This document shows, one piece after another, positions 1-23,567 of a DNA stretch of 57,373 nt. The stretch is taken from positions 1 through 57,373 of the IMG/VR virus record IMGVR_UViG_3300027708_000084, one strand, 5' to 3'. The notes beneath the pieces are model-generated. The model saw only the letters and a program-made list of their open reading frames with translations, was not told the origin of the DNA and did not search any database. Source of the stretch: a virus. Lineage: Duplodnaviria > Caudoviricetes. Both the position numbers and the translations under genes were made by a program. Every line of letters begins with the position of its first letter. Within the stretch, counting starts at the first letter, position 1.

Positions 1-60
1 AAGCGCGCAAGCCTGCGGCGCCATAGTGGTCAACCTAAATTTTTTGAGTGTGGCGCGCCC

Positions 61-89
61 ATTATACAGTGGCCAAGCAAACTTGTCAA
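61..89 (-). promoter_or_regulatory. sigma70-like promoter, leftward
   Basis: Reverse complement reads TTGACA-N17-TATAAT. Confidence 0.7.
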
Positions 90-132
90 GTGTATTTTCA
101 ACACAATTAGCACAACACTCAAAAAAACTCAC

Positions 133-161
133 TTGTCCAAAATTTCAAAAAGTTTTATAAT
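133..161 (+). promoter_or_regulatory. sigma70-like promoter
   Basis: TTGTCC-N17-TATAAT with an A-tract upstream. Confidence 0.65.
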
Positions 162-190
162 TTCTTTATGAAATCAGGAAGGGGTCACAC

Positions 191-325
191 ATGACAGACA
201 GCGAATTTTTTGCCTTGGTTCAGGAGCAATGGTTTTGGGAAGTACAGGAAACAGAACTATCCAAAAAAGTTGCCCTTACCCAAGTACACAATGAAATTTT
301 TGATCTTGAAGATGTTCCCTTTTGA
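191..325 (+). CDS. 44-aa acidic peptide ending EDVPF (SSB C-terminal tail-like)
   Basis: Manual translation MTDSEFFALV...IFDLEDVPF; purine-rich SD and promoter upstream; below the ORF-track cutoff. Confidence 0.55.
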   Translation: MTDSEFFALVQEQWFWEVQETELSKKVALTQVHNEIFDLEDVPF

Positions 326-335
326 GTAGTATAAT
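306..335 (+). promoter_or_regulatory. sigma70-like promoter
   Basis: TTGAAG-N18-TATAAT. Confidence 0.6.
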
Positions 336-373
336 ATTTCTTTAAACAGCGCAGAAACCAATTGAAAGGACAT

Positions 374-685
374 ATGATGACTGCAACTAACACAAACTAC
401 ACACCCGAGATGACCATGGAAGTTGTTGCCAGCTACAAAGCTGGTGACACTGTGGAAATGATCGCGGAACGCACAGGTAAAAGTGTGCGAAGCATTGTTG
501 CCAAGCTGTCACGCGAAGGCGTGTACGTGGCAAAAAGCAAAGCCAAAGGCGTTGCTGCTCCCCGCAAGGCTGAGCTGATTACCGAGATTGCTACCGCAAT
601 CGGTACTAGCGAGGAATTGATCGAGTCGCTTGAAAAAGCTACCCGCGAAGCCTTGGAACTGATCGCAAAGGCTGTTAAAGCCTGA
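374..685 (+). CDS. T5 A2-like DNA-binding protein
   Basis: NYTPE...VEMIAERTGKSVRSIVAKLSREGVY HTH-like motif; AAAGGA SD before ATG 374. Confidence 0.7.
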   Translation: MMTATNTNYTPEMTMEVVASYKAGDTVEMIAERTGKSVRSIVAKLSREGVYVAKSKAKGVAAPRKAELITEIATAIGTSEELIESLEKATREALELIAKAVKA

Positions 686-711
686 TCGGTTTAGGGTCAG
701 AAAATTCTATC

Positions 712-740
712 TTGAAGTTCTGACCCTTTTATTGTATAAT
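712..740 (+). promoter_or_regulatory. sigma70-like promoter with an inverted repeat straddling the -35
   Basis: TTGAAG-N17-TATAAT; AGGGTCAGAA (693-702) / TTCTGACCCT (718-727). Confidence 0.65.
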
Positions 741-768
741 ATTTATATAAACAGTCGGGAAGGGCTTA

Positions 769-915
769 ATGAATTGGCATGAAAGTGCCGCCCGTTTGTC
801 ATCGATCTCTTTGTCTACCAACCAGTCACTGTATGTCGACACACCTGCGAAGCTAGATCAATATGGCAACGATTGTTTATTTTCTCTTGATTTTAGTCAG
901 TTGATCGTGTTATAA
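769..915 (+). CDS. possible 48-aa peptide
   Basis: ATG after GGGAAGGG, downstream of a promoter; no motif. Confidence 0.3.
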   Translation: MNWHESAARLSSISLSTNQSLYVDTPAKLDQYGNDCLFSLDFSQLIVL

Positions 916-916
916 T
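887..916 (+). promoter_or_regulatory. sigma70-like promoter for the ncRNA locus
   Basis: TTGATT-N18-TATAAT. Confidence 0.55.
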
Positions 917-924
917 ATTATATA

Positions 925-1915
925 ATTTAGTGAGTTGCTAGTTAACAAGAGCACTAGCGTAAAGCGTCTGAAATCATAAGCGCTTCTCTTAGATTGGGTG
1001 GAAAGCGGTCTTCAGCGCGATTGCGCTTTTGATGATACTTCCTTAATTGTGGTAAATATCCGAACCACAGCCCTTAGCCTCCATATATTAGTGACAACAT
1101 TAATATATGGGTGTTATGAGTGCCACGCACATGATTTGGCTTAACAACTTAATTGCAACCGAAATCTCTAGTTGCAGCCCTCCATTTTGCTGGGTTCGTC
1201 TATCGGTTAGGACGCTGCCCTTTCAAGGCGGAAAGACGAGTTCGATTCTCGTACCCAGTACCAAACTTTTGTAGATTAGGAATTTTTTGGAGTCTATAAA
1301 ATTTTGGTAGTCTGTTTTTAGTTTAGTGTTATCAGGGTATCGCTACAAGACGTTGTAGCTACGCGACAGTAAGCGTGCGAGCAACACTGTCTGATATAAC
1401 CGCCATTCGCTTGTCAGTGCTAGCTACATTTTTGACAAATAGGCACGATAATGCTAAACTAAAAATAGAAGCAATCAACTTGCTTGGGTTGTGGAACCCG
1501 AAACGTTGAGGAGTTTTTGTGCGATTTGAACATCCTTAAACTAAATCACATAGCTTGACACAGCTTTACCATGTTAGTTTTAACTGTGTTCTTAGAACAG
1601 TTCGTTAATGCAAGGCTATCGATAACGGTCTGCCAGTGGCGTGTTGTGCCCCTAGCTATAGGTTAATTAGTTCCACAGTGAAAGAACACTCTAAAAATAC
1701 AGCCATCATCTAAGCAAAGAGCCACGGCAGTGGTAATGTGAGTAACCAATCTCACTGGCGCACTTAGCAAAACCCCCTGCAAGGATTTACAGTCCTTGGC
1801 TTCGACCCTAGGTTGTAGCGTATGTAGACCATAGGCGGTTTGGCATTAGGTAGTCGTCAGGCTTTAAATCTCAACCTTACATGGTAGCAGAGCCTTAAAA
1901 AACTTGATCAGTTTC
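925..1915 (+). ncRNA. large structured non-coding RNA locus (GOLLD/ROOL-like candidate) with embedded tRNA
   Basis: About 1 kb with no ORF >=60 aa between promoter and terminator; many G-U-containing stems and long-range complementarities. Confidence 0.55.
1189..1263 (+). tRNA. tRNA-Glu(UUC)
   Basis: Cloverleaf; anticodon loop CTTTCAA; TTCGA T-loop; CCA. Confidence 0.9.
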
Positions 1916-1916
1916 A

Positions 1917-1953
1917 AAAGCCACCCAGCCACAAGCTCGGTGGCTTTTGTTTT
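1917..1953 (+). terminator. intrinsic terminator
   Basis: AAAAGCCACC/GGTGGCTTTT stem followed by T-rich tail. Confidence 0.75.
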
Positions 1954-2124
1954 GCCTGAAATAAGCCACTTATAAAATTTTGCACGTGGCTGCGCCATTT
2001 TACTAGTGCCAAACTGATTTGTCAAGTGAATTTTCTTTGAAGTCTGACCCTAAGCCGCAACAAGTGTACATATCACACACGTTTCACAATTTTGTGTCGA
2101 AATTTCACCAAAATTAAAGCACGA

Positions 2125-2156
2125 AAAAAAGCCCACCTATTATCAAATAAGTGGGC
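2125..2156 (-). terminator. intrinsic terminator
   Basis: GCCCAC/GTGGGC stem with an A7 tract on the left, downstream of the minus-strand ORF. Confidence 0.65.
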
Positions 2157-2177
2157 AATTGGTCAAATTAAGTTGGA

Positions 2178-2498
2178 TTAACTCAGTTTAGGGTCAGATT
2201 TGTTGACTAAATTTCGTTCAATCATGAGTAGCACCTGCTTGTTGACCTTTTCTAGTGATTCTAGGAGCTCAAGGTTGCAGTTGAGCAGTTGTGCAATGCG
2301 TTCAATGTGCTCGGACTTTTTCACAGGCACCTCACCACGTTTGTTCAAGTACTGCTTTTTTTGGTACACACCCAAACTTGAGAGCTTGGCGATTATGCTA
2401 CGCTCTGGCACCTCGAGCTGTTGTGCAAGCTCTAAGACGGTCGCTCCCGCTTCATAGTCTTCTACTAATTTTTTGGTTGATTCTGGAGTATATTTCAT
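2178..2498 (-). CDS. A2-like DNA-binding protein, paralogue of 374..685
   Basis: Shares YTPE...RSI[IV]AKLS..GVY and L.ESLEK motifs with 374..685. Confidence 0.7.
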   Translation of the reverse strand: MKYTPESTKKLVEDYEAGATVLELAQQLEVPERSIIAKLSSLGVYQKKQYLNKRGEVPVKKSEHIERIAQLLNCNLELLESLEKVNKQVLLMIERNLVNKSDPKLS

Positions 2499-2500
2499 GC

Positions 2501-3508
2501 TTATACGTTCCAAGGTAATTCATTGCTAGTATCTTCTACTTTAAGTTTTTTTGTGATTGTGGGTTTCATGTTAAAAATATCCTCTGTGATTAGTGGTGTA
2601 GGCATTTGATCCCAATTATAGGGATTTAAAACCATACTGTTTGTGCGATTACTAGGATGTGCACACCAAATTTGAGTTAACATTACTTGAGCTAAATCAG
2701 GTACTTCTTCTAGAACTGTACCCTTAGTAGACCACAATTTGTGTGTGGTCATTGGATTTCGTTTAGAACCTTCTTTTTCTCCTGACATAATAGTCAATCC
2801 TTGATTACGTGCAGCTAATAGCTCTTCTCTGGTAAATTCTTGGCGTTCTAGTGTCATTGCATCGCACAATGATTTATTTACTACCCACCTTAAGGTAGTT
2901 TTATCCCACTTGGAGTATGGAATACTTTTATATAGCTTAAAAGCATAGGGTATAAGGGGAACTAGTGAGCAATATGGCTTGCTTTCTCCCTTATACTGTG
3001 TAGATAAATACGCACTACGGGCATCTAACATTAAAAATTGATATAAACCTCTGTCCCATTCGTTGCTAAAATCAAAAATATGATTTAACATTTTTCGACC
3101 ATCAATCTGACCCTCAGCTGTACAAACCTCAGCTAAAATCAGGTGTTTTTGCTGTAACCAAACTATAATCTGTGGCATTAGTGCGACTAGCACAGGTTTT
3201 AACCTGTACTTGGGAATCCATGTATCTTTGATGATTTCTTGAGTGACCTTTCGCCTGATTGCGGAAGCTTCTTCAGCGCTTAGCTGTTGCTGAGAAAATT
3301 GATCGGCAAAACTCGTTTCACTAGGAGCTTCCGAACTATTGCTGTAGTGTTGTTCTGCTTGCTCAACTTGCTGAAGGAACTTGCTCTCTAGATTCATTTC
3401 CTGCAATCGGATTTGCTCTTCTACAGCAAGCTCTACGCTTTGGTAGAGCTCTCGAAATGGTGTCTGATGTAACTGTTTTATATTAATTTTTTGTGTTAAA
3501 AAACTCAT
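2501..3508 (-). CDS. hypothetical protein, 335 aa
   Basis: Long ORF adjacent to the A2 paralogue; no motif recognised. Confidence 0.75.
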   Translation of the reverse strand: MSFLTQKINIKQLHQTPFRELYQSVELAVEEQIRLQEMNLESKFLQQVEQAEQHYSNSSEAPSETSFADQFSQQQLSAEEASAIRRKVTQEIIKDTWIPKYRLKPVLVALMPQIIVWLQQKHLILAEVCTAEGQIDGRKMLNHIFDFSNEWDRGLYQFLMLDARSAYLSTQYKGESKPYCSLVPLIPYAFKLYKSIPYSKWDKTTLRWVVNKSLCDAMTLERQEFTREELLAARNQGLTIMSGEKEGSKRNPMTTHKLWSTKGTVLEEVPDLAQVMLTQIWCAHPSNRTNSMVLNPYNWDQMPTPLITEDIFNMKPTITKKLKVEDTSNELPWNV

Positions 3509-3887
3509 TTGGTATATACCTTGAATTGACCCTAAATTGCGGAAATCCGACTAGAGCAGGGTTACGCTAGAGTGGGACAGCTTGACCAGCCCTCTTCAGT
3601 TTAGGGTCGGGCAAAGCGAGAAAGTGCGTAGAAAACTCCAATTTACTTTAGATTACAAAAAACAAAAAAACATAGTAGTAGCCCTTTGCAACATTGTTAT
3701 CAATTGTGGGAAATTTATGCATTTAACAACATTGCTCTCTGTAGCTACCTACGACGGGTACGGAGTCCCTTACGAAGTTCGCTCAGAGAGCTATTGTTAA
3801 ATTAAATTTCTTTGGTTATCTGTTATAACTTTTTATATATTATAACACACGTTTTTGTATTTTGCAAGATGTATTTTTATCAATGCT

Positions 3888-4127
3888 CTAGATACTAGGA
3901 TTGCTTTTTGCAAAAAAGTCGATTTTGTGGAATTGTTGCTGTGCGGCCAAGCTGTATTGCAGGAGTGTTAGGATTCCAAACAGCTGCAACCAGGTCAGTG
4001 GAAAACCACCCCAGTAGACTAGCAGCATCCAAGCTGGGTTTGTTAGCAGCAGGGCTATTACGATAAGCGTTAGCGCATAACGGACCAGCATGCAGGGTTT
4101 ACATGGTAACATATTCAGGGACTCCAT
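3888..4127 (-). CDS. small membrane protein (start uncertain)
   Basis: Two hydrophobic segments. Confidence 0.5.
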   Translation of the reverse strand: MESLNMLPCKPCMLVRYALTLIVIALLLTNPAWMLLVYWGGFPLTWLQLFGILTLLQYSLAAQQQFHKIDFFAKSNPSI

Positions 4128-4344
4128 TTACAAAGTTGATTTGGGTAATACGGCGACCACCAATAGTGCTGCCTAGGCCAATGCTTAGTTGTCCTGAGTA
4201 GTTGACTACCTGACAGTTGGTGGTGTCGTTGGTGACAAGCTTGCCGCCTTTGACTACAGTGCTTAACACTGGTTGACCTTGTAGTTGCCAGTGGTTGGGT
4301 GTGACCTCTACAAATTCGTAGTTTTCACCTTGACGATTTTTCAT
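4099..4344 (-). CDS. hypothetical protein
   Basis: ORF with AAGGA SD. Confidence 0.6.
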   Translation of the reverse strand: MKNRQGENYEFVEVTPNHWQLQGQPVLSTVVKGGKLVTNDTTNCQVVNYSGQLSIGLGSTIGGRRITQINFVNGVPEYVTM

Positions 4345-4376
4345 GTGTGGGTTCCTTGGGTTCGTGAAATTTTGAG

Positions 4377-4405
4377 TTGACCTTGCGGTTGATACGTGCT
4401 ATACT
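4377..4405 (+). promoter_or_regulatory. sigma70-like promoter
   Basis: TTGACC-N17-TATACT. Confidence 0.6.
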
Positions 4406-4428
4406 GGTACAAAAATTTTGGAGACAGC

Positions 4429-4695
4429 ATGGCATATGGATTACAGATAAATGGTTTTGACTTTACCTATGGCGTTTATTCAGTTATACAAAAAGGCACA
4501 CTATATTACACAGTTATAGTAGACAAAGCAAATCATCCAGATATTAGGGAATGGCGTACTGTTTTTGTGCCACTAGGAATTCGTGATATTAGCAAAAACG
4601 AACTCAGACCCACAGTTGTAGAAATCAATAACACCATTGTAATGACACCTCCTGCAAGTGGCGTAGAACACTTGTACTTTGTTTTAGGAAGATAG
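4429..4695 (+). CDS. small virion/tail-tip-like protein
   Basis: MAYGLQING... start after GGAG; beta-rich; precedes the adhesin. Confidence 0.55.
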   Translation: MAYGLQINGFDFTYGVYSVIQKGTLYYTVIVDKANHPDIREWRTVFVPLGIRDISKNELRPTVVEINNTIVMTPPASGVEHLYFVLGR

Positions 4696-4696
4696 T

Positions 4697-6733
4697 ATGG
4701 CAACACAAAGATGGGGCATTAAAACCCTGGATGATAATGGATATGTTAACCTGCACTCGGACTATAGTTCAGTTGTGTATGTGGGTGAAATGGCTCAAAG
4801 CACTGACCCAGTAAAACCCAACTACTTGGGAGATTATGCCATTGGCATACCTGAGAGCGTTAAAAACTCAAATTATCACATGGGTTATCTTATACAGTAC
4901 TTGATAACTGGCATAAGCACTGATTTTTTGGTGCCCTTTTACAAACCTAATTTTAGCCTGCAACAAATTTCCATACTAGACGTAGTTAGAAAGGACAACA
5001 CAACCTGGGCAGTTAACTTACTCTATAGCGGTGATATAGGCGCAGTACCCAGAGTATTTGCATTTGCTCCACTAAATGCACTGCCAATACCTGCTGCTGT
5101 AGCAGGTGAAACTGGACTACGTGTTTATGATCAGCAAGGTGGTTTAGTGTTTACTACTACCAAAAAACCACTACGAGTTGATGATGTGTTACAAATACTA
5201 CACCCCAGTTCAATTAAAACCAATGGTCGTGGCGGTTGTGGTGACGATCACGGGTGTCATGTTGATTTTACACCAAACCTGAGTTCAGACTATACTGGCA
5301 CAGTAACAAATACAAGCACTAAAATATATCACATTGTACCTAGTGCATATGGTGGTTTAGCCTATAGTAATAGTGGGAGCGGCACTAGAAGTTGTGGTTT
5401 TGCTGGCTGGGGTGAGCGTGAGTATGCTTGGGCATATCAAAGTTGGGCAAGTTATCGAGGTACATTGGGTCATGAGTTTGGTACACAAAAACATAAATCA
5501 GATTGGTACGGTGACTTTGCTGGAGCATATCATAGGTACCAAGAAGGTGATTGTGGAATTGGTGGTATTTTAGGTGCAATTTTAGGTGGGCTTTTAGCTG
5601 TGTTTACATTTGGTGCTAGTTTAGCACTTTTTGTAGGCGGAGCTTTAGTTGGCTGGGCAATAAGTGGAGTACCAAATGCTCCAGCATTAAAAGCATATCA
5701 AGCAGACCAAACGTTTGATACAAACAACCCAAGTAACTTAATTATTACTGATTTAAACTATTATACTAGCGAAGGTATTACTCAGCTACCACTAAGTTTT
5801 TACAATTTAATTGCTACAACCACCAGTGTAACTGAGGGCACTTCCATAACATTTGATGTAAGTGGATTTAATATTGTTAGTGGCACATACTACTGGACTA
5901 TTAACAACATTGGTACCGTTAATGCAGACTTTGTTAATGCTTCAGGATTTTTTAATATTTCAGGAAACAAGGGATCATTTGCCGTTAATATCTTACAAGA
6001 TAACCTTAATGAAAGTGACGAATACTTTACAGTAGAAATTCGCAGAGATAGTATTAATGGCCCAATTTTAAAAACTAGTTCAAATGTTAAAATACCTGCA
6101 AACGGTTGGATTATAACTCCTGCGGCTACAAAAATATATGAAGGTTTAACTGCAATAGTTAATGTAGATGTAGTTAATTTGGGTAGTATTAGTGGTACAT
6201 ACTACTGGAAAATTGAGCATATTAGTACAGCTCATTCAGACTTTACCAATAATTCAGGTACTGTTGTTATTGCAAACAGTAAAGGTAGTTTTACAATAAG
6301 TCCTATACAAGATTTTGCTAAAGAAACAGATGAAACATTTACAATATCTATTCGTAGTGGTAGTATTACTGGCCCAGTTATAACAACCAGTGATACAATT
6401 ACACTTGGTGGATTCGGAGGCGATAGTTATAAATTTGCAGTATCAACAGGCAGGGCTGATGCTCAATTTTTTTATTCAGGTGGAACAACAGAATGGATAC
6501 AAGAAAATATATATAATACTAATAATGGTCAAAGTTATGATAATGTTACTATTTATTATAATGGCTATGTTGGTAACTATCAAGGTGTTCCGTATAATAC
6601 AACTTCACTTAATAATGGTAAAGATAATACCTATTTTCGAGGATTCCAAATGGGTGTATATACCCAAGGTGAGATAGCACCTGGTGTACTTAGAGGACTT
6701 AGTAGTTGGTCAATAGTTAGAAGTGGTGGATAA
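4697..6733 (+). CDS. putative receptor-binding/tail protein with two Calx-beta-like repeats and a hydrophobic Gly-rich segment
   Basis: Two repeats EG...YYW.I.....ADF...SG...I...GSF...QD...E.DE.FT..IR..SI.GP; GIGGILGAILGGLLAVF segment. Confidence 0.6.
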   Translation: MATQRWGIKTLDDNGYVNLHSDYSSVVYVGEMAQSTDPVKPNYLGDYAIGIPESVKNSNYHMGYLIQYLITGISTDFLVPFYKPNFSLQQISILDVVRKDNTTWAVNLLYSGDIGAVPRVFAFAPLNALPIPAAVAGETGLRVYDQQGGLVFTTTKKPLRVDDVLQILHPSSIKTNGRGGCGDDHGCHVDFTPNLSSDYTGTVTNTSTKIYHIVPSAYGGLAYSNSGSGTRSCGFAGWGEREYAWAYQSWASYRGTLGHEFGTQKHKSDWYGDFAGAYHRYQEGDCGIGGILGAILGGLLAVFTFGASLALFVGGALVGWAISGVPNAPALKAYQADQTFDTNNPSNLIITDLNYYTSEGITQLPLSFYNLIATTTSVTEGTSITFDVSGFNIVSGTYYWTINNIGTVNADFVNASGFFNISGNKGSFAVNILQDNLNESDEYFTVEIRRDSINGPILKTSSNVKIPANGWIITPAATKIYEGLTAIVNVDVVNLGSISGTYYWKIEHISTAHSDFTNNSGTVVIANSKGSFTISPIQDFAKETDETFTISIRSGSITGPVITTSDTITLGGFGGDSYKFAVSTGRADAQFFYSGGTTEWIQENIYNTNNGQSYDNVTIYYNGYVGNYQGVPYNTTSLNNGKDNTYFRGFQMGVYTQGEIAPGVLRGLSSWSIVRSGG

Positions 6734-7143: not shown

Positions 7144-7389
7144 TTATATTAGCTGTTGCATTTTATTGTAAATAGACTGTTGACTTGTTTGCAAGTTAAT
7201 ATAGCCTTTGTGTTCAAGGGCAGCAAGAATTGCAAGAAAATCTTCTAGTTCACCAACAAGCTCTTGTTTATTAGTGGTTTTCCGATCAGGGTGGTGACTA
7301 TTGTCACCAAAACGATGAATTTTACTAATGGCTTGGATTACTTCAGCTGCTTCTTCCTGCAATTTGGCACCTAGTTCTCTTAACTCCAC
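7144..7389 (-). CDS. MazG-like nucleotide pyrophosphohydrolase
   Basis: LQEEAAEV...ELED acidic metal-binding pattern. Confidence 0.6.
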   Translation of the reverse strand: MELRELGAKLQEEAAEVIQAISKIHRFGDNSHHPDRKTTNKQELVGELEDFLAILAALEHKGYINLQTSQQSIYNKMQQLI

Positions 7390-7718
7390 GATTGATGTAC
7401 CTCATGTATGCTTTCAATACCATCATACTCATGTATGTACCAGTTTGTTCCATCAGGAATTTCTACAACTTTTAGTGATGCAAAATTACCCCAGCTTTGT
7501 TCGCCTAAAAGTTCTACTACCTGAACCAAGTCTGGATCATCACGAACAATATCGTACTGACTAATATATTCATTGTTGGGACTATAGAATTCTTGTCCAA
7601 TAAAAGTGCTCTCATTGGGCACTATAACATATTCAATGTTTTTGAGTTTTAGGTAAGCTTCAAAAGCTTGTGCACTTAAACCAAAACCACCATACTCTGT
7701 GTTGATTACAATTTTCAT
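7380..7718 (-). CDS. conserved phage hypothetical protein
   Basis: MKIVIN.. YGGFGLS...RDDPDLVQVVE..G...LKVVEIP pattern. Confidence 0.75.
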   Translation of the reverse strand: MKIVINTEYGGFGLSAQAFEAYLKLKNIEYVIVPNESTFIGQEFYSPNNEYISQYDIVRDDPDLVQVVELLGEQSWGNFASLKVVEIPDGTNWYIHEYDGIESIHEVHQSWS

Positions 7719-7766
7719 GGTCTATGTCCTGTTGGAAAAGGCCAACTTGCCGTTGGCTTAGATTTT

Positions 7767-8093
7767 TTACATATCAGAGTTATCAGGCGTCGAAGCAGGT
7801 GTTTCATTGACAGTTTCCTTTTGTTTGACTGGTTTAGCAACGGGTGTCTCTGCAACTACAAGTTGTTCATAGCCATTTTCATCTACTACAATACCATACT
7901 GTTCGCCTAAGATTTCTAAGATAACTAATTCACAACCTAAACCGCAAGCAGTTGCACCCATTGTTTCTAGTGTTTCAATAAGTTGTGGACTATGACGTTC
8001 AATTTCAATATTACCACCTAAGGTAAGATAGTGTGTCATAGCAGGACCACTTAGTGAAAATGGGGCGGTTGTTTTGTTGATTACTACTTTCAT
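7767..8093 (-). CDS. diverged paralogue of 7380..7718
   Basis: MKVVIN....FSLS...R..P.L...E..G pattern. Confidence 0.65.
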   Translation of the reverse strand: MKVVINKTTAPFSLSGPAMTHYLTLGGNIEIERHSPQLIETLETMGATACGLGCELVILEILGEQYGIVVDENGYEQLVVAETPVAKPVKQKETVNETPASTPDNSDM

Positions 8094-8110
8094 GTTTTTC
8101 CTTTAGTGGG

Positions 8111-8764
8111 TTAGTCCCACAAGTTTTGATAATATTTTCCAAAAAGTTGGAAAGCGTTTTGTTTGCGAGCCTGGTGTGCTTTTAATCCTACTTCATCAAT
8201 TTGAATTCGATTCATTTTGGATTCAAAACTTTCACCTGCGACTTCCACACCGTGATTGTAGAACTTATCTGTGCTGTTATCATCACAGTGTTGCTCAAAA
8301 GCCCAGATCATTTCATCAAGCACATATGTCCAACGATAGTGCCAGTTGTCATCAGTGTCCCAATCATTCTCGCATTTATCACGAGCACCTGGTGCTGTTG
8401 AACGCAGTGGTGCTGGCACGTCTGCATCATCTACACTAGGAGCACCATGTTGCGTTGCTTTTAGCTGACGTAACATTGGCAACACAATAAGTGCTAGTGT
8501 ATGGTCTGCACTCCAAGTATCGTACTTGTCAATTTTAACATAAATTTGACGTTTGCGCTTGGACTCAATCCAATTACAAAAATTGGTTAACCAAGTGTTT
8601 GATCCATCTTTGCGTTCAGCAAGCCAAGTACCAAAATCATGTACCCAGTCCGCTTTGCTTTTAAAACCCGATTCATCTGTTTGTGGTTTAGCCCACCAAC
8701 AAAGTGCATCAGCAATTTGATAAGGACCAATCCAGTTGATGTAAGGTCCAATTTTTACTTTCAT
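8111..8764 (-). CDS. hypothetical protein (Trp-rich)
   Basis: 217-aa ORF, translationally coupled. Confidence 0.75.
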   Translation of the reverse strand: MKVKIGPYINWIGPYQIADALCWWAKPQTDESGFKSKADWVHDFGTWLAERKDGSNTWLTNFCNWIESKRKRQIYVKIDKYDTWSADHTLALIVLPMLRQLKATQHGAPSVDDADVPAPLRSTAPGARDKCENDWDTDDNWHYRWTYVLDEMIWAFEQHCDDNSTDKFYNHGVEVAGESFESKMNRIQIDEVGLKAHQARKQNAFQLFGKYYQNLWD

Positions 8765-9033
8765 TATGTATTCTCCTCTGGTCCGTAGTTGTCAAAATCT
8801 ATTCGTGTTTCATTCCAGTCTATTAGACTAGTCCAGTCTAAATCAGCTACACTGGGTGCAGTAGTATTAATAGCACTCCAGTAACCTGCTGTAAATGCCT
8901 GACGCATCCAGTAGTCACGATCATCCTGTGTGGGATTATTATTCATGTTGGCAGTAAAAACTTGACTGCGATTGCTGTTTTCTAAAGGATAGTTTTCGTC
9001 ATAAAACCAAGCATTAAATTTACGATTTATCAT
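8764..9033 (-). CDS. hypothetical protein
   Basis: Coupled ORF. Confidence 0.65.
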   Translation of the reverse strand: MINRKFNAWFYDENYPLENSNRSQVFTANMNNNPTQDDRDYWMRQAFTAGYWSAINTTAPSVADLDWTSLIDWNETRIDFDNYGPEENT

Positions 9034-9224
9034 AACTTGGGTTCCTTTTGAACTGGAATTTCATGCACGGTTTTACCCTCAAGATCATAGATATTCCACT
9101 TAACTGTTTTCCAGTATTTGTGAAAAATGTTGTTTAGTGAAAGTATTAACAGTGCAAGTACAAACGCACCGCAACTAAATAAAATACTACAAACCAACCA
9201 ATTAACTCCTGCATCTAGTGTCAT
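9030..9224 (-). CDS. small membrane protein
   Basis: One transmembrane segment; ATGA overlap. Confidence 0.6.
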   Translation of the reverse strand: MTLDAGVNWLVCSILFSCGAFVLALLILSLNNIFHKYWKTVKWNIYDLEGKTVHEIPVQKEPKL

Positions 9225-9781
9225 GCTATTTCCTTTTCTTGATAATGTGTTTCACAAAGTGTACGAACCCAACCACCACTACGAGTTTCACCTGGGCTAC
9301 CGCATTGTTCACAAGTCACATCACTCATAGCTTCTGCTAGTGTAACCATGCCTGTTATGCGGTCATCACCGCCGTCATAGTAAAATCGTAGCGTGCCATA
9401 TTTTTCTTTGACTTGAGCGGCTACTACTTGTTGTACCAAGTCAGGTAGTTTACGAGGTTGATTGCGATCAATTTCAAATTCTACATTTTTAAGTGTTTGT
9501 TCGTCTACAACACCACCAAATGTATAATATTCAGTTAATTTAGTACGATCACCTGCTTGCGCTAGTGCTAGTGCATGGTTATAGTTTATAGCATTATTGT
9601 ACTTATGCTGACGCCAGTCAATGTAATGCTGAATTTGACTGCAAAGTTGATCTAGAATATTGTACCAACCATCTCCACAGTCAAAACCCCAGCACATTGC
9701 TGTGGTTGTCATGTCTGCGTAACGGTTTGCAAAAATTTTAGGATACTTGTCACAAAGTAGTTTGTCTAGTTCGGGTTTCAT
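9221..9781 (-). CDS. conserved phage protein with C-terminal Zn-ribbon
   Basis: QVKEKYGTLRFY...CEQCG...LC..H. Confidence 0.7.
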   Translation of the reverse strand: MKPELDKLLCDKYPKIFANRYADMTTTAMCWGFDCGDGWYNILDQLCSQIQHYIDWRQHKYNNAINYNHALALAQAGDRTKLTEYYTFGGVVDEQTLKNVEFEIDRNQPRKLPDLVQQVVAAQVKEKYGTLRFYYDGGDDRITGMVTLAEAMSDVTCEQCGSPGETRSGGWVRTLCETHYQEKEIA

Positions 9782-19235: not shown

Positions 19236-20102
19236 ATGAAAATCGCAGTTTGCTCAGACTTGCACTTAGAGTTTGATACATTAACACTAAAAAATACTGA
19301 AAACGCACAAGTTTTAATCTTGGGCGGAGATATTTGCGTGGCTCGTGATTTACTGGACAAAGATAGCGTAGAAATATTTGACAGATTTGATCGTAGCGGT
19401 GGACTACACGAATTCTTCCAAATGTGCTGCCGTAACTTTAGTCACGTTGTGTATGTTGCTGGTAATCACGAGCACTACAACGGCGACTATGCCAAAACTT
19501 TTACAATTCTGCGTGATAGACTAGCGTACTTGCCCAACCTACACATCTTAGACAAACAAACATTTGTATTAGATGACGTTACCTTTATTGGCGGCACGCT
19601 GTGGACTGACATGAATAACGAAGACAGCATGACCTTACGTCATATCAAAGGCATGATGAATGATTTTCGTTGTGTCAATAATAGTAATAGTATAGTCAAT
19701 TTCAAGACGTTTGATGAAAATGGTAATGCTGAATTCAAAACACGTGTTGCTAAATTTTTACCAGAAGATGCTGTTGCAGACCACAAACTAATGATGAGTT
19801 ATGTTGCTGAAGTTATTTCAGGCAAATTTGACAAAAAGTTTGTGGTTGTTGGGCATCATGCTCCTAGTAAGGCATCAACTCATCCTCGCTATAAGTATGA
19901 AGAATTAATGAATGGTGCTTATAGCAGCGATCTAGATGACTTTATAATCGATCATCCACAAATCAAATTGTGGACTCATGGTCACACTCATGAAGACTTT
20001 GACTATCAAGTTGGCTCAACCAGAGTAGTTTGCAATCCACGTGGTTACGCAAACTATGAAGATCGTGCTGACAAGTTTCAGTTAAAGTTTGTAGAAGTAT
20101 AA
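19236..20102 (+). CDS. metallophosphoesterase (calcineurin-like)
   Basis: SDLH, GD, GNHE, HH.P, HGHTH motifs. Confidence 0.9.
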   Translation: MKIAVCSDLHLEFDTLTLKNTENAQVLILGGDICVARDLLDKDSVEIFDRFDRSGGLHEFFQMCCRNFSHVVYVAGNHEHYNGDYAKTFTILRDRLAYLPNLHILDKQTFVLDDVTFIGGTLWTDMNNEDSMTLRHIKGMMNDFRCVNNSNSIVNFKTFDENGNAEFKTRVAKFLPEDAVADHKLMMSYVAEVISGKFDKKFVVVGHHAPSKASTHPRYKYEELMNGAYSSDLDDFIIDHPQIKLWTHGHTHEDFDYQVGSTRVVCNPRGYANYEDRADKFQLKFVEV

Positions 20103-20107
20103 TTTAT

Positions 20108-20435
20108 TGTTGTATGAAGCAACGAGAACCGTGTCTTGGACGGGGGTGCGAATCCCCCCACCTCCACCATAAGGATTTTTATGTTTGATGAATGGCATTG
20201 GGTTTATCTATGGGGCATATTAATTTGGATAAATTATATGTTCTGTCTCATAAAAAGTCTTTATGATGGGGGTGACTAGTTTCGACAGGGCAAGTAGTAG
20301 CAGAGTGGACAACACATCAGAGCAGATGTTAAAACTAAACAAAAGTAAACGCAAACGACTCACAGTTCGCATTAGCAGCTTAAACACTGCTTAGGGTTTT
20401 TGGTAGGTTTCCTCGTAACAGAATAACCTACCGCT
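20108..20435 (+). ncRNA. ssrA: circularly permuted two-piece tmRNA
   Basis: Acceptor piece ends ...CACCTCCACCA at 20169; coding piece starts GGGGGTGA at 20268 (G3-U70 Ala identity); tag ANDSQFALAA* at 20351-20383; outer ends approximate. Confidence 0.88.
20181..20279 (+). CDS. 32-aa hydrophobic peptide encoded in the tmRNA intervening segment
   Basis: TAAGGA-N5-ATG; MFDEWHWVYLWGILIWINYMFCLIKSLYDGGD. Confidence 0.5.
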   Translation: MFDEWHWVYLWGILIWINYMFCLIKSLYDGGD

Positions 20436-20455
20436 TTACTAACGGATAAATAATT

Positions 20456-21464: not shown

Positions 21465-21540
21465 ATCCCTATCATCTAGCGGCCAAGGATAGCAGGTTTT
21501 CAGCCTGTTCACGTGGGTTCGAATCCCGCTAGGGATGCCA
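21465..21540 (+). tRNA. tRNA-Glu(UUC), second copy
   Basis: Loop TTTTCAG; G73; CCA. Confidence 0.88.
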
Positions 21541-21546
21541 AAATTT

Positions 21547-21620
21547 GCGGGTAAGCCTAAGGTAGGACGCCAGCCTTCCAAGCTGCGCTGAGTGGAGTTC
21601 GATTCTCCCTACCCGCTCCA
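21547..21620 (+). tRNA. tRNA-Gly(UCC)
   Basis: Loop CTTCCAA; GCGGGTA/TACCCGC acceptor; TCCA. Confidence 0.85.
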
Positions 21621-22118: not shown

Positions 22119-23567
22119 ATGAATTTTTTAGGAATACATACTGGTACACATGATTCTAATTTTACCTTTACAAGCGGTAAAAATATAAGGTATTTTAAAT
22201 CTGAAAGATTTAAACAGATAAAACATCACGCTTACTACGGTATTACTACTGAATTACTAAATGATTTAAAAAATTTTGGTATAGATATAAACAAACTAGA
22301 CGCTGTAGCAATATCAGGTCAGTTTAATTTGACAGATGCCGAAGAAAAACAATATCACTTATTAAAACAAACAGTATTTAACTGCGCTACTTACAGCGTA
22401 AATCACCATTATAGTCACGCATTAAGTTGTTTTCCTTTAGAAAATTATAATTTAGTTACTAAAAAATTTGTATTAGATGGAGCTGGTGTAAGCTCCTCTT
22501 CTGAAAAGCAGGATTACGAAACTATTTCAGTTTTTGATAATCAGGGAATTGTATTAAAAAAATATAGATTACCAGAAGTAATGTCTTTAGGTAGGGCGCT
22601 TAGAATTCTTGGGCAACATTGGAATCTAGAGGGCCATAGAACCGACCATGCGGGCAAGTTAATGGCATATCAGTCATATGGAAAAATTGACCTCTGTCTT
22701 ATAAAGCAACTTGAAAATCTAAATATAACACAAATAGAAAAATTATTTTCAAATCCCCCAACAGAACCCTGTCACGATTGGTTAAGAAATAGGCATTTTA
22801 TTAGTGAAAAAATAATTAATGACTTTTTTAAGTATTTAGCTTTAAATAGTGAATATATTTCTTACTCAGGTGGAGTAGCACATAATATACTAATTAACTC
22901 TCAGTTAAAACAGTGGAATAATAATATTGTTATTCCACCTCATTGTGGAGACGACGGAATATCATTAGGTCTAGTAGAGTTACTAAGACAAATATATCAA
23001 CAAGAACCTTTTATTAATACTGGATTTCCTTACTGGCAACAAGATGAAGTTAAAGAGCTGCCATCAAAAACAGTAATTAAAAAAGCAGCAGAAATGATTG
23101 CTAATGGTAAAATAATTGGTTGGTGCCAGGGTAAAGGTGAAATAGGTGCAAGAGCTTTAGGCAATCGCTCTATATTAATGAGAGCAGATCTGGTAGATGG
23201 AAAAGACATAATAAATACTAAAGTAAAACATCGAGAACACTATAGGCCTTTTGGGTGCAGCATTCTATTAGAAGATACAAATAAACACATGGACTGTAAT
23301 TTTTATAGCCCATATATGTTATACAGTGTTAATGTATCTGATTCATCTCTTAAATCTATAACTCACGTAGACGGAACCACTAGGCCTCAAACAGTAGTAG
23401 ATGGGTTGTTTTCAGAACTATTACTTGAAGTAAAAAAATTAACAGGTTCTTCTATAGTTTTAAATACTTCACTAAATGTTAATGGATTTCCAATAGCTAC
23501 ACCAGAATATGCTATAAATCTTAAACATAAACTAGATGGATTATTTATAGGCAATAGTTATATTTAA
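22119..23567 (+). CDS. carbamoyltransferase, NodU/CmcH family
   Basis: HDS, ER....KH, HH..HA, DG.G, GKLM, SGGVA.N, GD.G, E.G.RALGNRS, RPF, HVDGT.R.Q, LNTS.N. Confidence 0.88.
   Translation: MNFLGIHTGTHDSNFTFTSGKNIRYFKSERFKQIKHHAYYGITTELLNDLKNFGIDINKLDAVAISGQFNLTDAEEKQYHLLKQTVFNCATYSVNHHYSHALSCFPLENYNLVTKKFVLDGAGVSSSSEKQDYETISVFDNQGIVLKKYRLPEVMSLGRALRILGQHWNLEGHRTDHAGKLMAYQSYGKIDLCLIKQLENLNITQIEKLFSNPPTEPCHDWLRNRHFISEKIINDFFKYLALNSEYISYSGGVAHNILINSQLKQWNNNIVIPPHCGDDGISLGLVELLRQIYQQEPFINTGFPYWQQDEVKELPSKTVIKKAAEMIANGKIIGWCQGKGEIGARALGNRSILMRADLVDGKDIINTKVKHREHYRPFGCSILLEDTNKHMDCNFYSPYMLYSVNVSDSSLKSITHVDGTTRPQTVVDGLFSELLLEVKKLTGSSIVLNTSLNVNGFPIATPEYAINLKHKLDGLFIGNSYI

Follow-up and report, generated by a model that had tools for sequence, protein, structure and literature searches.

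Few non-coding RNAs are large and intricately folded, and what those few do has been a long-standing open question. Two of them, GOLLD and ROOL, are linked to phages and to transfer RNAs (tRNAs) and were recently found to form RNA-only cages. We describe here a locus at positions 925-1950 of the uncultured virus record IMGVR_UViG_3300027708_000084, which was analyzed over its whole length of 57,373 bases (hereafter, the window). A preliminary description, made from the sequence of the window alone, had proposed that this locus encodes a single ornate non-coding RNA of ~1 kb with an embedded tRNA-Glu, either GOLLD-like or of a new class. We find that the locus is a non-coding RNA gene on the + strand that is conserved, structured and modular, and that it is a member of a previously undescribed modular family of large (~0.7-1.0 kb) structured RNAs in uncultured T5-like lake phages.

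According to the available portion of PMC12286853, GOLLD is a phage-borne RNA of more than 800 nucleotides (nt) that is conserved in its 3' region and less so in its 5' region, sometimes carries tRNAs in its linker, and is partly lake-derived; in the same portion, ROOL is described as large and ornate, occurring in phages and prophages, often near tRNAs, and of unknown function. Hammerhead ribozymes of phages are thought to process long transcripts, as stated in the accessible part of Perreault et al. 2011 (PMC3088659). At the DNA level, the left terminal repeat of T5 is a large untranslated region rich in repeats and palindromes (excerpts of bioRxiv 10.1101/866236; NC_005859 annotation), and the T5 injection-stop region is defined in those excerpts by eight DnaA boxes and acts on DNA (bioRxiv 10.1101/866236).

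The locus resembles GOLLD, as portrayed in the portion cited above, in being a phage RNA of ~1 kb with two domains, a tRNA in or beside the linker, variable modules next to a conserved part, and an occurrence in lakes. It differs from GOLLD in that its 5' module, found at 43 of 80 syntenic loci, is no less widespread than its 3' core (24 of 80), in the hammerhead that most members carry, and in a signature (5' module, GUC cleavage site, scaffold and optional core) that is unrelated in sequence, and we regard the likeness as resemblance, not homology. The GOLLD covariance model (RF02032, 416 positions, gathering threshold 150 bits) produced 0 matches at E<=10 over the whole window. ROOL, as far as that portion describes it, is likewise a large ornate phage RNA linked to tRNA, but the size and modules of the new family differ, and the ROOL model (RF03087, gathering threshold 99.1 bits) had 0 matches at E<=10, a weak test as 14 control genomes were also without a match. 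Neither GOLLD nor ROOL appeared in a permissive cmscan of 700-2200, nor at gathering thresholds in the window and the loci of 13 relatives. Across all Rfam scans (the window; 700-2200; positions 7200-9400 of the related locus L002; the loci of 13 relatives), only tRNAs, a transfer-messenger RNA (tmRNA) and sub-threshold noise were returned, and the cmscan check proposed in the preliminary description, run with Rfam 15, found only the tRNA in the locus, even at E<=10 over 700-2200. A full-text literature search, judged from listings and abstracts, found no description of such an RNA. Thus, of the two classes first proposed, the new class stands and membership in GOLLD does not: this is a large phage RNA family distinct from GOLLD and ROOL, whose members carry a hammerhead, a tRNA or both.

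The locus encodes a conserved, structured and modular non-coding RNA

The first syntenic locus, L002 (48% protein identity), has a few collinear islands in common with the window, among them an 18-mer located in the 3' part of the RNA. When viral contigs were scanned for this 18-mer, 15 loci matched: 14 syntenic homologues and one chance match (L014). A further 15 matches in 185,579 species genomes, from unrelated taxa, were rejected as chance, all of them scoring <=20 bits with the covariance model R1 introduced below. Using the more conserved of the flanking helix-turn-helix (HTH) proteins as bait, 80 syntenic loci were gathered regardless of their RNA content. Close relatives were obtained by a metagenome scan for the window's own version of the motif, which yielded eight loci (L113-L120) of four distinct types; along most or all of the locus, their sequence identity to the window is 75-82%. 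The homologous locus always lies between two paralogous small HTH genes.

The promoter and terminator named in the preliminary description (887-916 and 1917-1953, respectively) were both recovered, the latter as a hairpin and U-run with slightly wider limits (Table 1). The promoter, P1, is nearly invariant in seven close relatives, and an equivalent promoter precedes the homologous RNA in distant relatives. In the terminator stem, RNAalifold finds two pairs altered on both sides in L113 and L116, and a terminator of the form AAAAGCC..GGCUUUUGUUUUG likewise ends the RNA in distant relatives. As had been stated, the locus has no open reading frame (ORF) of 60 amino acids (aa) or more: the longest ORF overlapping 925-1950 is 55 aa (1107-1274) and traverses the tRNA, and the + strand holds several of 31-55 aa. 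Substitutions relative to four close relatives are without three-base periodicity (29/25/26, 43/45/48, 40/35/38 and 35/35/39; p ~0.85). In contrast, the neighboring hth1 gene is codon-periodic (15/3/4; p 0.002). Most indel lengths at the locus among close relatives are not multiples of three.

Structure is evident from comparison. Applied to the complete locus in an alignment of five distinct close relatives (A5), RNAalifold predicts 248 pairs, of which 37 are compensatory. Some of these 37 are in the stems of the tRNA and in the second UUAAUUG hairpin, others in the long insert (its inner hairpin), in hairpin 1486-1499, in the hairpins of the core and in the terminator. The tRNA-Glu, an element of the preliminary description that ARAGORN and Rfam both confirm, shows covariation in the acceptor, anticodon and T stems. 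In L113 and L116, two-sided changes preserve the pairing of the inner hairpin 1341-1347/1352-1358; hairpin 1486-1499 (GGGUU-GUGG-AACCC) is replaced by AGCCU/AGGCU in L119.

The 3' domain contains a three-way-junction core with a signature made up of an AAAGAA-loop hairpin (1677-1680/1687-1690), the near-invariant 18-mer AAUACAGCYAUCAUCUAA (1696-1713), a closing helix GCYA/URGC (1702-1705/1756-1759) and two covarying hairpins (1721-1725/1730-1734 and 1738-1742/1751-1755). Across 28 distinct sequences of the core, pairing holds in 92% of cells and 17 of the 19 pairs are compensatory, values that 0 of 500 shuffles reached; the covariation score of 0.539 compares with 0.05-0.15 (maximum 0.151) for slid controls. 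The closing helix is GCCA/UGGC in the window alone vs GCUA/UAGC in other members, a compensatory change. In the core, G-U outnumbers A-C by 18 to 1, which indicates pairing in + strand RNA and not in duplex DNA. The covariance model of the core, R1, scores non-seed close relatives at 83-101 bits, as compared to <=20 bits for chance 18-mer matches in bacterial genomes.

All of the complementary segments listed in the preliminary description are present in the window at the coordinates given there, and alignment A5 separates them. Two of the stems are borne out: 1154-1159/1171-1176 is 100% paired with four of six pairs compensatory, and 1738-1755 is 100% paired with three of five compensatory. 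The stems 1081-1093/1098-1110 and 1780-1798 are kept and invariant, making covariation uninformative, and the 1780-1798 module is absent in two of the five. The stem 1630-1640/1721-1730 is broken in L119, while the competing hairpin 1721-1725/1730-1734 stays paired through compensatory changes. Three long-range pairings had been described as crossing each other. Two of these, 1490-1497/1670-1677 (92.5% paired) and 1505-1510/1870-1875 (100% paired), are nearly invariant and covariation is again uninformative; the third, 1567-1574/1879-1886, is paired in 55% of cells and is not conserved. Crossing pseudoknots are not established by these data. By our own arithmetic, chance alone should produce ~8 perfect 8-mer and ~120 perfect 6-mer complementarities in a sequence of 1 kb, and long-range matches of 6-8 bases are therefore not above chance on their own. 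RNAalifold additionally proposes a 5'-3' closing helix (993-1000/~1903-1910) and a pairing of 1070-1078 with 1505-1514, both invariant in all five sequences and likewise uninformative. Folding energy is modest for 925-1188 (z -1.86) and strong for 1264-1473 (z -4.08). Because folding energy is significant for this insert only, and long-range complementarity is at chance level, it is the comparison with relatives that shows a structured RNA and not the window sequence alone.

Table 1. Coordinates and properties of features at the RNA locus, numbered as in the window
Feature	Positions	Strand	Description
Promoter P1	887-916	+	TTGATT-18-TATAAT with extended -10 TG; sigma-70-like consensus scan; drives the locus
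5' domain	925-1188	+	Family 5' module ~996-1072, hairpin 1081-1110, second UUAAUUG-hairpin-CAGCCC unit 1148-1180
tRNA-Glu(UUC), CCA encoded	1189-1263	+	ARAGORN; RF00005 56.3 bits vs gathering 29; between 5' and 3' domains
AU-rich hairpin ~1267-1301, then UUUUGG	1264-1313	+	Fold; only in the window and L119
Long imperfect hairpin element (155 nt)	1314-1470	+	Outer stem ~1314-1333 with 1447-1469, small hairpins enclosed
Promoter-like P2	1432-1460	+	TTGACA-17-TAAACT, inside the hairpin element; consensus scan 10/12 matches; status uncertain
3' domain	1474-1954	+	Hairpin 1486-1499, variable hairpins, core, optional module 1763-1870, terminator
Three-way-junction core	1654-1787	+	Covariance model R1; window 93.8 bits (window is a seed sequence)
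Intrinsic terminator	1915-1954	+	Stem ~1915-1925/1939-1949, then U-run UUUUGUUUUG; scan lists overlapping hairpin 1927-1945
Convergent promoter	1997-2025	-	TTGACA-17-TAAAAT, 11/12 matches; just outside the locus, aimed at the terminator

Module exchange and hammerhead ribozymes among relatives

Members of the family share the 5' module, the 3' scaffold and the terminator, and they gain or lose a tRNA-Glu, a canonical hammerhead and the core. Of the 80 syntenic loci, 16 have the tRNA-Glu, 47 a strict hammerhead and 24 the core. The 5' module, which consists of GGGUG..AGCGG, a variable hairpin, CUUAAUUGUGG, a loop and CCACAGCC, was matched by regular expression in the window and in 43 of the 80, whereas none of the 80 shuffled and none of the 80 opposite-strand controls matched. 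Where the slot occupied by the tRNA in the window also holds a tRNA in other loci, it is always tRNA-Glu(UUC), with no other type found among the 80; as 64 of them are without a tRNA, we regard it as an accessory passenger and not as the purpose of the locus. The combination seen in the window (5' module, tRNA and core, without hammerhead) recurs in one further locus, L074. L018, which has the closest HTH protein, combines the 5' module, tRNA-Glu and 3' scaffold without the core; a hammerhead-like sequence that the strict search missed can be seen by eye right after its CCA. An RNA-library contig of one relative runs from the equivalent of 1184 straight into 1464, without tRNA and hairpin, and the two together are therefore an insert in an otherwise continuous RNA. 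The segment 1264-1313 within this insert is absent from L114, L113 and L116.

In some relatives a second, weaker or partial match to the core (27-43 bits) lies 1.5-2 kb from the main one, on the - strand of the locus: L049 4136-4279, L063 5579-5717, L031 5749-5808, L025 4558-4619, L033 4664-4725 and L035 5737-5798. These matches suggest duplicated or decayed copies. A different arrangement of the tRNA occurs in L016 (= L012, L013) at ~3380-3660, where the tRNA-Glu is upstream of the RNA promoter and the hammerhead starts ~30 nt past that promoter, from which it follows that the tRNA and the RNA can be separate units.

Hammerheads were sought with a strict pattern that allowed no bulges and required a CUGANGA box, stem II, GAAA, a stem III closed by A15.1-U16.1, a non-G cleavage site and stem I. 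This search matched 57 of 242 strands, always the RNA strand, vs 1 of 242 shuffled. Across 37 distinct hammerheads, the C, U, G, A, G, A, G, A, A, A and U16.1 positions never vary, and compensatory change is seen in 15 of the 17 stem pairs; stem III has an insert of ~60-70 nt, and cleavage is predicted after GUC or GUA. L002, the one relative scanned permissively, scored just 20.1 bits with the Rfam hammerhead model vs a gathering threshold of 48.5 because of this stem III insert, and a gathering-level Rfam scan of the loci of 13 relatives returned no hammerhead. The relatives share with phage and prophage hammerheads the CUGANGA box, stem II, GAAA, stem III and the GUC or GUA site, and differ from them in the stem III insert and in the location of the ribozyme, which is within a non-coding RNA and not between genes. 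Judged by its sequence, the family carries a strand-specific catalytic RNA motif, and the members that have it are predicted to self-cleave by it.

Neither positions 1-5000 of the window nor the eight close relatives L113-L120 contain a hammerhead detectable by the strict search, and Rfam hammerhead models had no match at E<=10 over 700-2200. In the window, the hammerhead slot of the relatives is filled by the tRNA-Glu and the 155-nt hairpin element with its covarying inner stems. At 1480-1510 a hairpin is followed by GAAAC, but CUUGCUU stands where CUGANGA would be expected; the idea of a decayed hammerhead at this site was set aside as speculation, the GAAAC not being kept in L113 and L116.

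Expression, maturation and alternative readings

RNA libraries contain RNA of this family. Contigs that are identical or nearly identical to the window were found in three runs of lake metatranscriptomes, drawn from three studies, and span 1474-1800 (X2), 1479-1834 (X11) and 1668-1923 (X10), with word depths of 1669, 176 and 185, respectively; flanking-gene contigs in X2 and X10 have depths of 3-9. In a DNA run (X1), depth is flat at ~14 from 1771 rightwards and ranges from 14 to 82 by bin leftwards. Window-type sequence at ~984-1473 has little or no contig cover in X2, X10 and X11, a gap that is not read as absence. A single RNA-library contig carries both the 5' and the 3' domain in relatives that lack the insert. 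Adapter-like letters adjoin 1474, 1479 and 1923 in the same orientation as on a contig of the + strand hth1 mRNA, a weak hint of + strand RNA with a 5' end near 1474-1479. The contig depths also give a weak hint that a stable ~450-nt product, consisting of the 3' domain, accumulates. Positions 1474-1479 lie in the loop of a small hairpin just past the long hairpin and are at the same time 14-19 nt after the -10 of P2, so that processing and a second start are both possible.

The proposal of a promoter-to-terminator, non-coding and ornate RNA locus with an embedded tRNA-Glu is supported by these results, with covariation and conservation found in related phages and the locus found in RNA libraries; neither of the two outcomes that the preliminary description had named as refuting it was observed. 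As for a single giant RNA, the RNA-library contigs and the modular architecture point instead, if weakly, to processed parts. We consider it likely that, as a whole, the locus is a non-coding RNA gene of a modular family whose precursor is cut into parts and whose 3' RNA acts in trans. Transcription would proceed from P1 and perhaps also from P2. Host RNase P and the enzymes that process tRNA 3' ends would cut the precursor at the tRNA, and another cut near the base of the long hairpin, at ~1474-1479, would leave three products: a 5' RNA of ~260 nt, the tRNA-Glu and a ~450-nt 3' RNA. In most relatives, hammerhead self-cleavage at GUC would separate the parts in the same way. The window RNA is probably matured to the ~450-nt 3' RNA and not kept as a 1-kb molecule. 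The freed 3' domain would be the functional stable product, a folded scaffold or decoy that acts in trans, and those nucleotides of the core junction that are unpaired and near-invariant (UCAUCUAA..AAGA, UAAUG) could form a recognition surface for a partner. We suggest this scaffold or decoy function with low confidence, by analogy to GOLLD and ROOL and from the pattern of conservation.

A number of observations weigh against this reading. Contigs cannot establish the ends, strand or level of an RNA, and contig depth cannot rank genes; the apparent 5' ends differ (1474 vs 1479) and may be fragmentation sites or a start from P2. The 3' domain (1474-1926) folds no better than shuffles (z -0.43). 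The core alignment (A4) was fitted to its model and the 37 hammerheads came from a search requiring short stems, both of which raise the pairing percentages given above. No module is seen at 15 of the 80 syntenic loci, some of which are truncated. The core is absent at 56 of 80, including L018 and L019, which have the closest HTH proteins; it is therefore an optional insert and cannot be the essential part of the family. Lastly, the AU-rich hairpin and UUUUGG after the tRNA (1267-1307), although not among the terminator-scan calls, may act as a weak terminator, which together with P2 would split the locus.

Such a split would give two or three independent units, with P1 producing a 5' RNA and the tRNA-Glu that end near 1301 and P2 producing a 3' RNA of ~480 nt, in which case the 1-kb molecule never exists in this phage. 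P2 has 10 of 12 consensus matches and a TG, two RNA contigs start just downstream of it at 1474 and 1479, and the tRNA and hairpin are an insert relative to the RNA contig of a relative. However, these starts are 14-19 nt past the -10, as opposed to the usual 5-9 nt. The P2 -35 is preserved in four of five distinct close relatives and is lost in L113, where it reads GAGACA; the TG is found in the window alone, and the -10 is constrained by doubling as a strand of a conserved stem. The post-tRNA hairpin is missing in three of five close relatives and falls below the criteria of the terminator scan, and relatives lacking the insert have both domains on one RNA contig. Independent units are, in our estimation, unlikely, but for this phage they are still a serious alternative.

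The conserved element could also be one that works as DNA, either a control region similar to the T5 injection stop or a cluster of operators for the HTH proteins, with transcription being incidental. As with the T5 region described in the excerpts cited above, the locus is a gene-free stretch of ~1-2 kb that is rich in repeats and palindromes and lies beside small early genes of a T5-like genome, with a DNA polymerase ~49% identical to those of T5-like phages and an untranslated terminal-repeat region of similar kind in T5. The locus is also flanked by convergent promoters, and a 10-mer, TTAGGGTCAG, is over-represented. It lies close to promoters outside the RNA, and in relatives it recurs several times, in either orientation, within the RNA gene itself. 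Unlike the T5 region, the locus contains no DnaA box (TTATCCACA at <=1 mismatch: 0 of 21 window matches inside 925-1950, with 21 observed vs 19.6 expected in the window) and has no core similarity to the T5 terminal repeat (R1 with filters off: best 7.8 bits, E 0.81), and it holds no exact copy of TTAGGGTCAG. The covariation is at the RNA level, with the G-U excess described above, the hammerhead of the family is strand-specific with invariant core letters, and RNA-library contigs exist. We consider a DNA-level function very improbable.

That the locus is a divergent member of GOLLD or ROOL, as the architectural likeness to GOLLD (PMC12286853, available portion) might suggest, is hard to credit given the 0 matches of both models at E<=10, weak as this is for ROOL with its silent controls, and none at gathering thresholds in the loci of 13 relatives. 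Least credible is that small proteins (ORFs of 25-55 aa) are encoded and the RNA structure is secondary: T5-like early regions do hold many small genes and several + strand ORFs of 31-55 aa are present, but codon periodicity is lacking where the gene next door has it, frame-breaking indels are common, the longest ORF runs through the tRNA, and an 18-nt block is invariant across phages with flanking proteins only 48-70% identical.

Genomic setting and implications

The window is an entire virus record that is classed as linear with a completeness estimate of 54%, a fragment with undefined ends. Among the proteins it encodes are a family A DNA polymerase, an SbcC-like nuclease, a ribonucleotide reductase and helicases; it also has a cluster of 17 tRNAs and a two-piece tmRNA. 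The DNA polymerase shares ~49% identity with its counterparts in T5-like phages of Salmonella and Escherichia (106-117 kb), and on this basis the source is a distant, uncultured relative of the T5-like phages. The DNA and RNA runs that contain window sequence are labelled as freshwater or lake water. A blastn search of 700-2200 against GenBank phages matched the tRNA-Glu only, and tblastn of the HTH protein against the same phages gave zero matches, leaving no cultured relative for comparison.

The RNA locus is flanked by the paralogous small HTH genes hth1 (374-685, +) and 2181-2498 (-), the products of which match the PHROG annotations 'transcriptional regulator, D5-like' and 'DNA binding protein'; up to four HTH paralogues occur inside a few kb in the relatives L006, L008 and L009. 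At syntenic loci the HTH pair is followed by a gene for a ~335-aa protein (p335), for which no PHROG or Pfam family was found and nothing usable was obtained from Atlas features (<=0.81) or its own structural model (predicted local distance difference test 0.36). Two near-identical strong minus-strand promoters are present at 61-89 (-) and 1997-2025 (-), with 12/12 and 11/12 consensus matches. The latter would yield merely a very short antisense transcript, and the promoter block around it (1990-2060) is 72-85% conserved in many syntenic loci.

The 10-mer TTAGGGTCAG has 13 matches at <=1 mismatch in the window vs 2.6 expected. Its three exact copies are at 691-700 (+), 2044-2053 (-) and 2188-2197 (+), none of them inside 925-1950, and they lie in the hth1 terminator stem, upstream of the minus-strand promoter and in the SDPKL tail of the HTH protein. 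In L002/L009, L018, L019 and L023, several copies in both orientations are found inside the RNA gene, where the 10-mer supplies the hammerhead cleavage site (GGGUC) and a downstream complement, with pairing over ~12 base pairs possible. The 10-mer may be an operator, an RNA helix or both.

The two-piece (permuted) tmRNA, at 20045-20438 (+) inside the tRNA cluster, is of the betaproteobacterial type (Rfam beta_tmRNA 112.2 bits, tmRNA_permuted 119.7 bits; ARAGORN tag ANDSQFALAA) and suggests, as a sequence-based pointer, a betaproteobacterial host group. The main tRNA cluster has a second tRNA-Glu(UUC) at 21465-21540 (+), placing the two copies in differing transcription contexts. Directly after it, a tRNA-like sequence at 21547-21617 (+) scores 30.8 bits with Rfam, barely above gathering, and is silent in ARAGORN. 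A gene for a Nol-like carbamoyltransferase lies amid the cluster at 22119-23567 (+) (PHROG 1601, E 5e-125).

As a further step, which we put forward as tentative and more doubtful than not, the family could form an independent class of ornate phage RNA, the third after GOLLD and ROOL, made up of self-processing RNAs in which a mature 3' domain is freed by interchangeable cutters (mostly the hammerhead; here the tRNA and long hairpin) and then takes part in RNA-only assembly or acts as a decoy for a host factor early in infection, with the core junction as a docking or ligand site. A further unrelated family with the same habits, being phage-borne and modular with a linker tRNA, would show that such RNAs have evolved repeatedly in phages. 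The built-in ribozyme marks the start of the mature RNA and offers a concrete experimental handle, and the exchange of hammerhead for tRNA plus hairpin at one slot is a natural experiment on the maturation of large RNAs. The apparent abundance of the RNA in lake metatranscriptomes suggests a role during infection of common freshwater bacteria.

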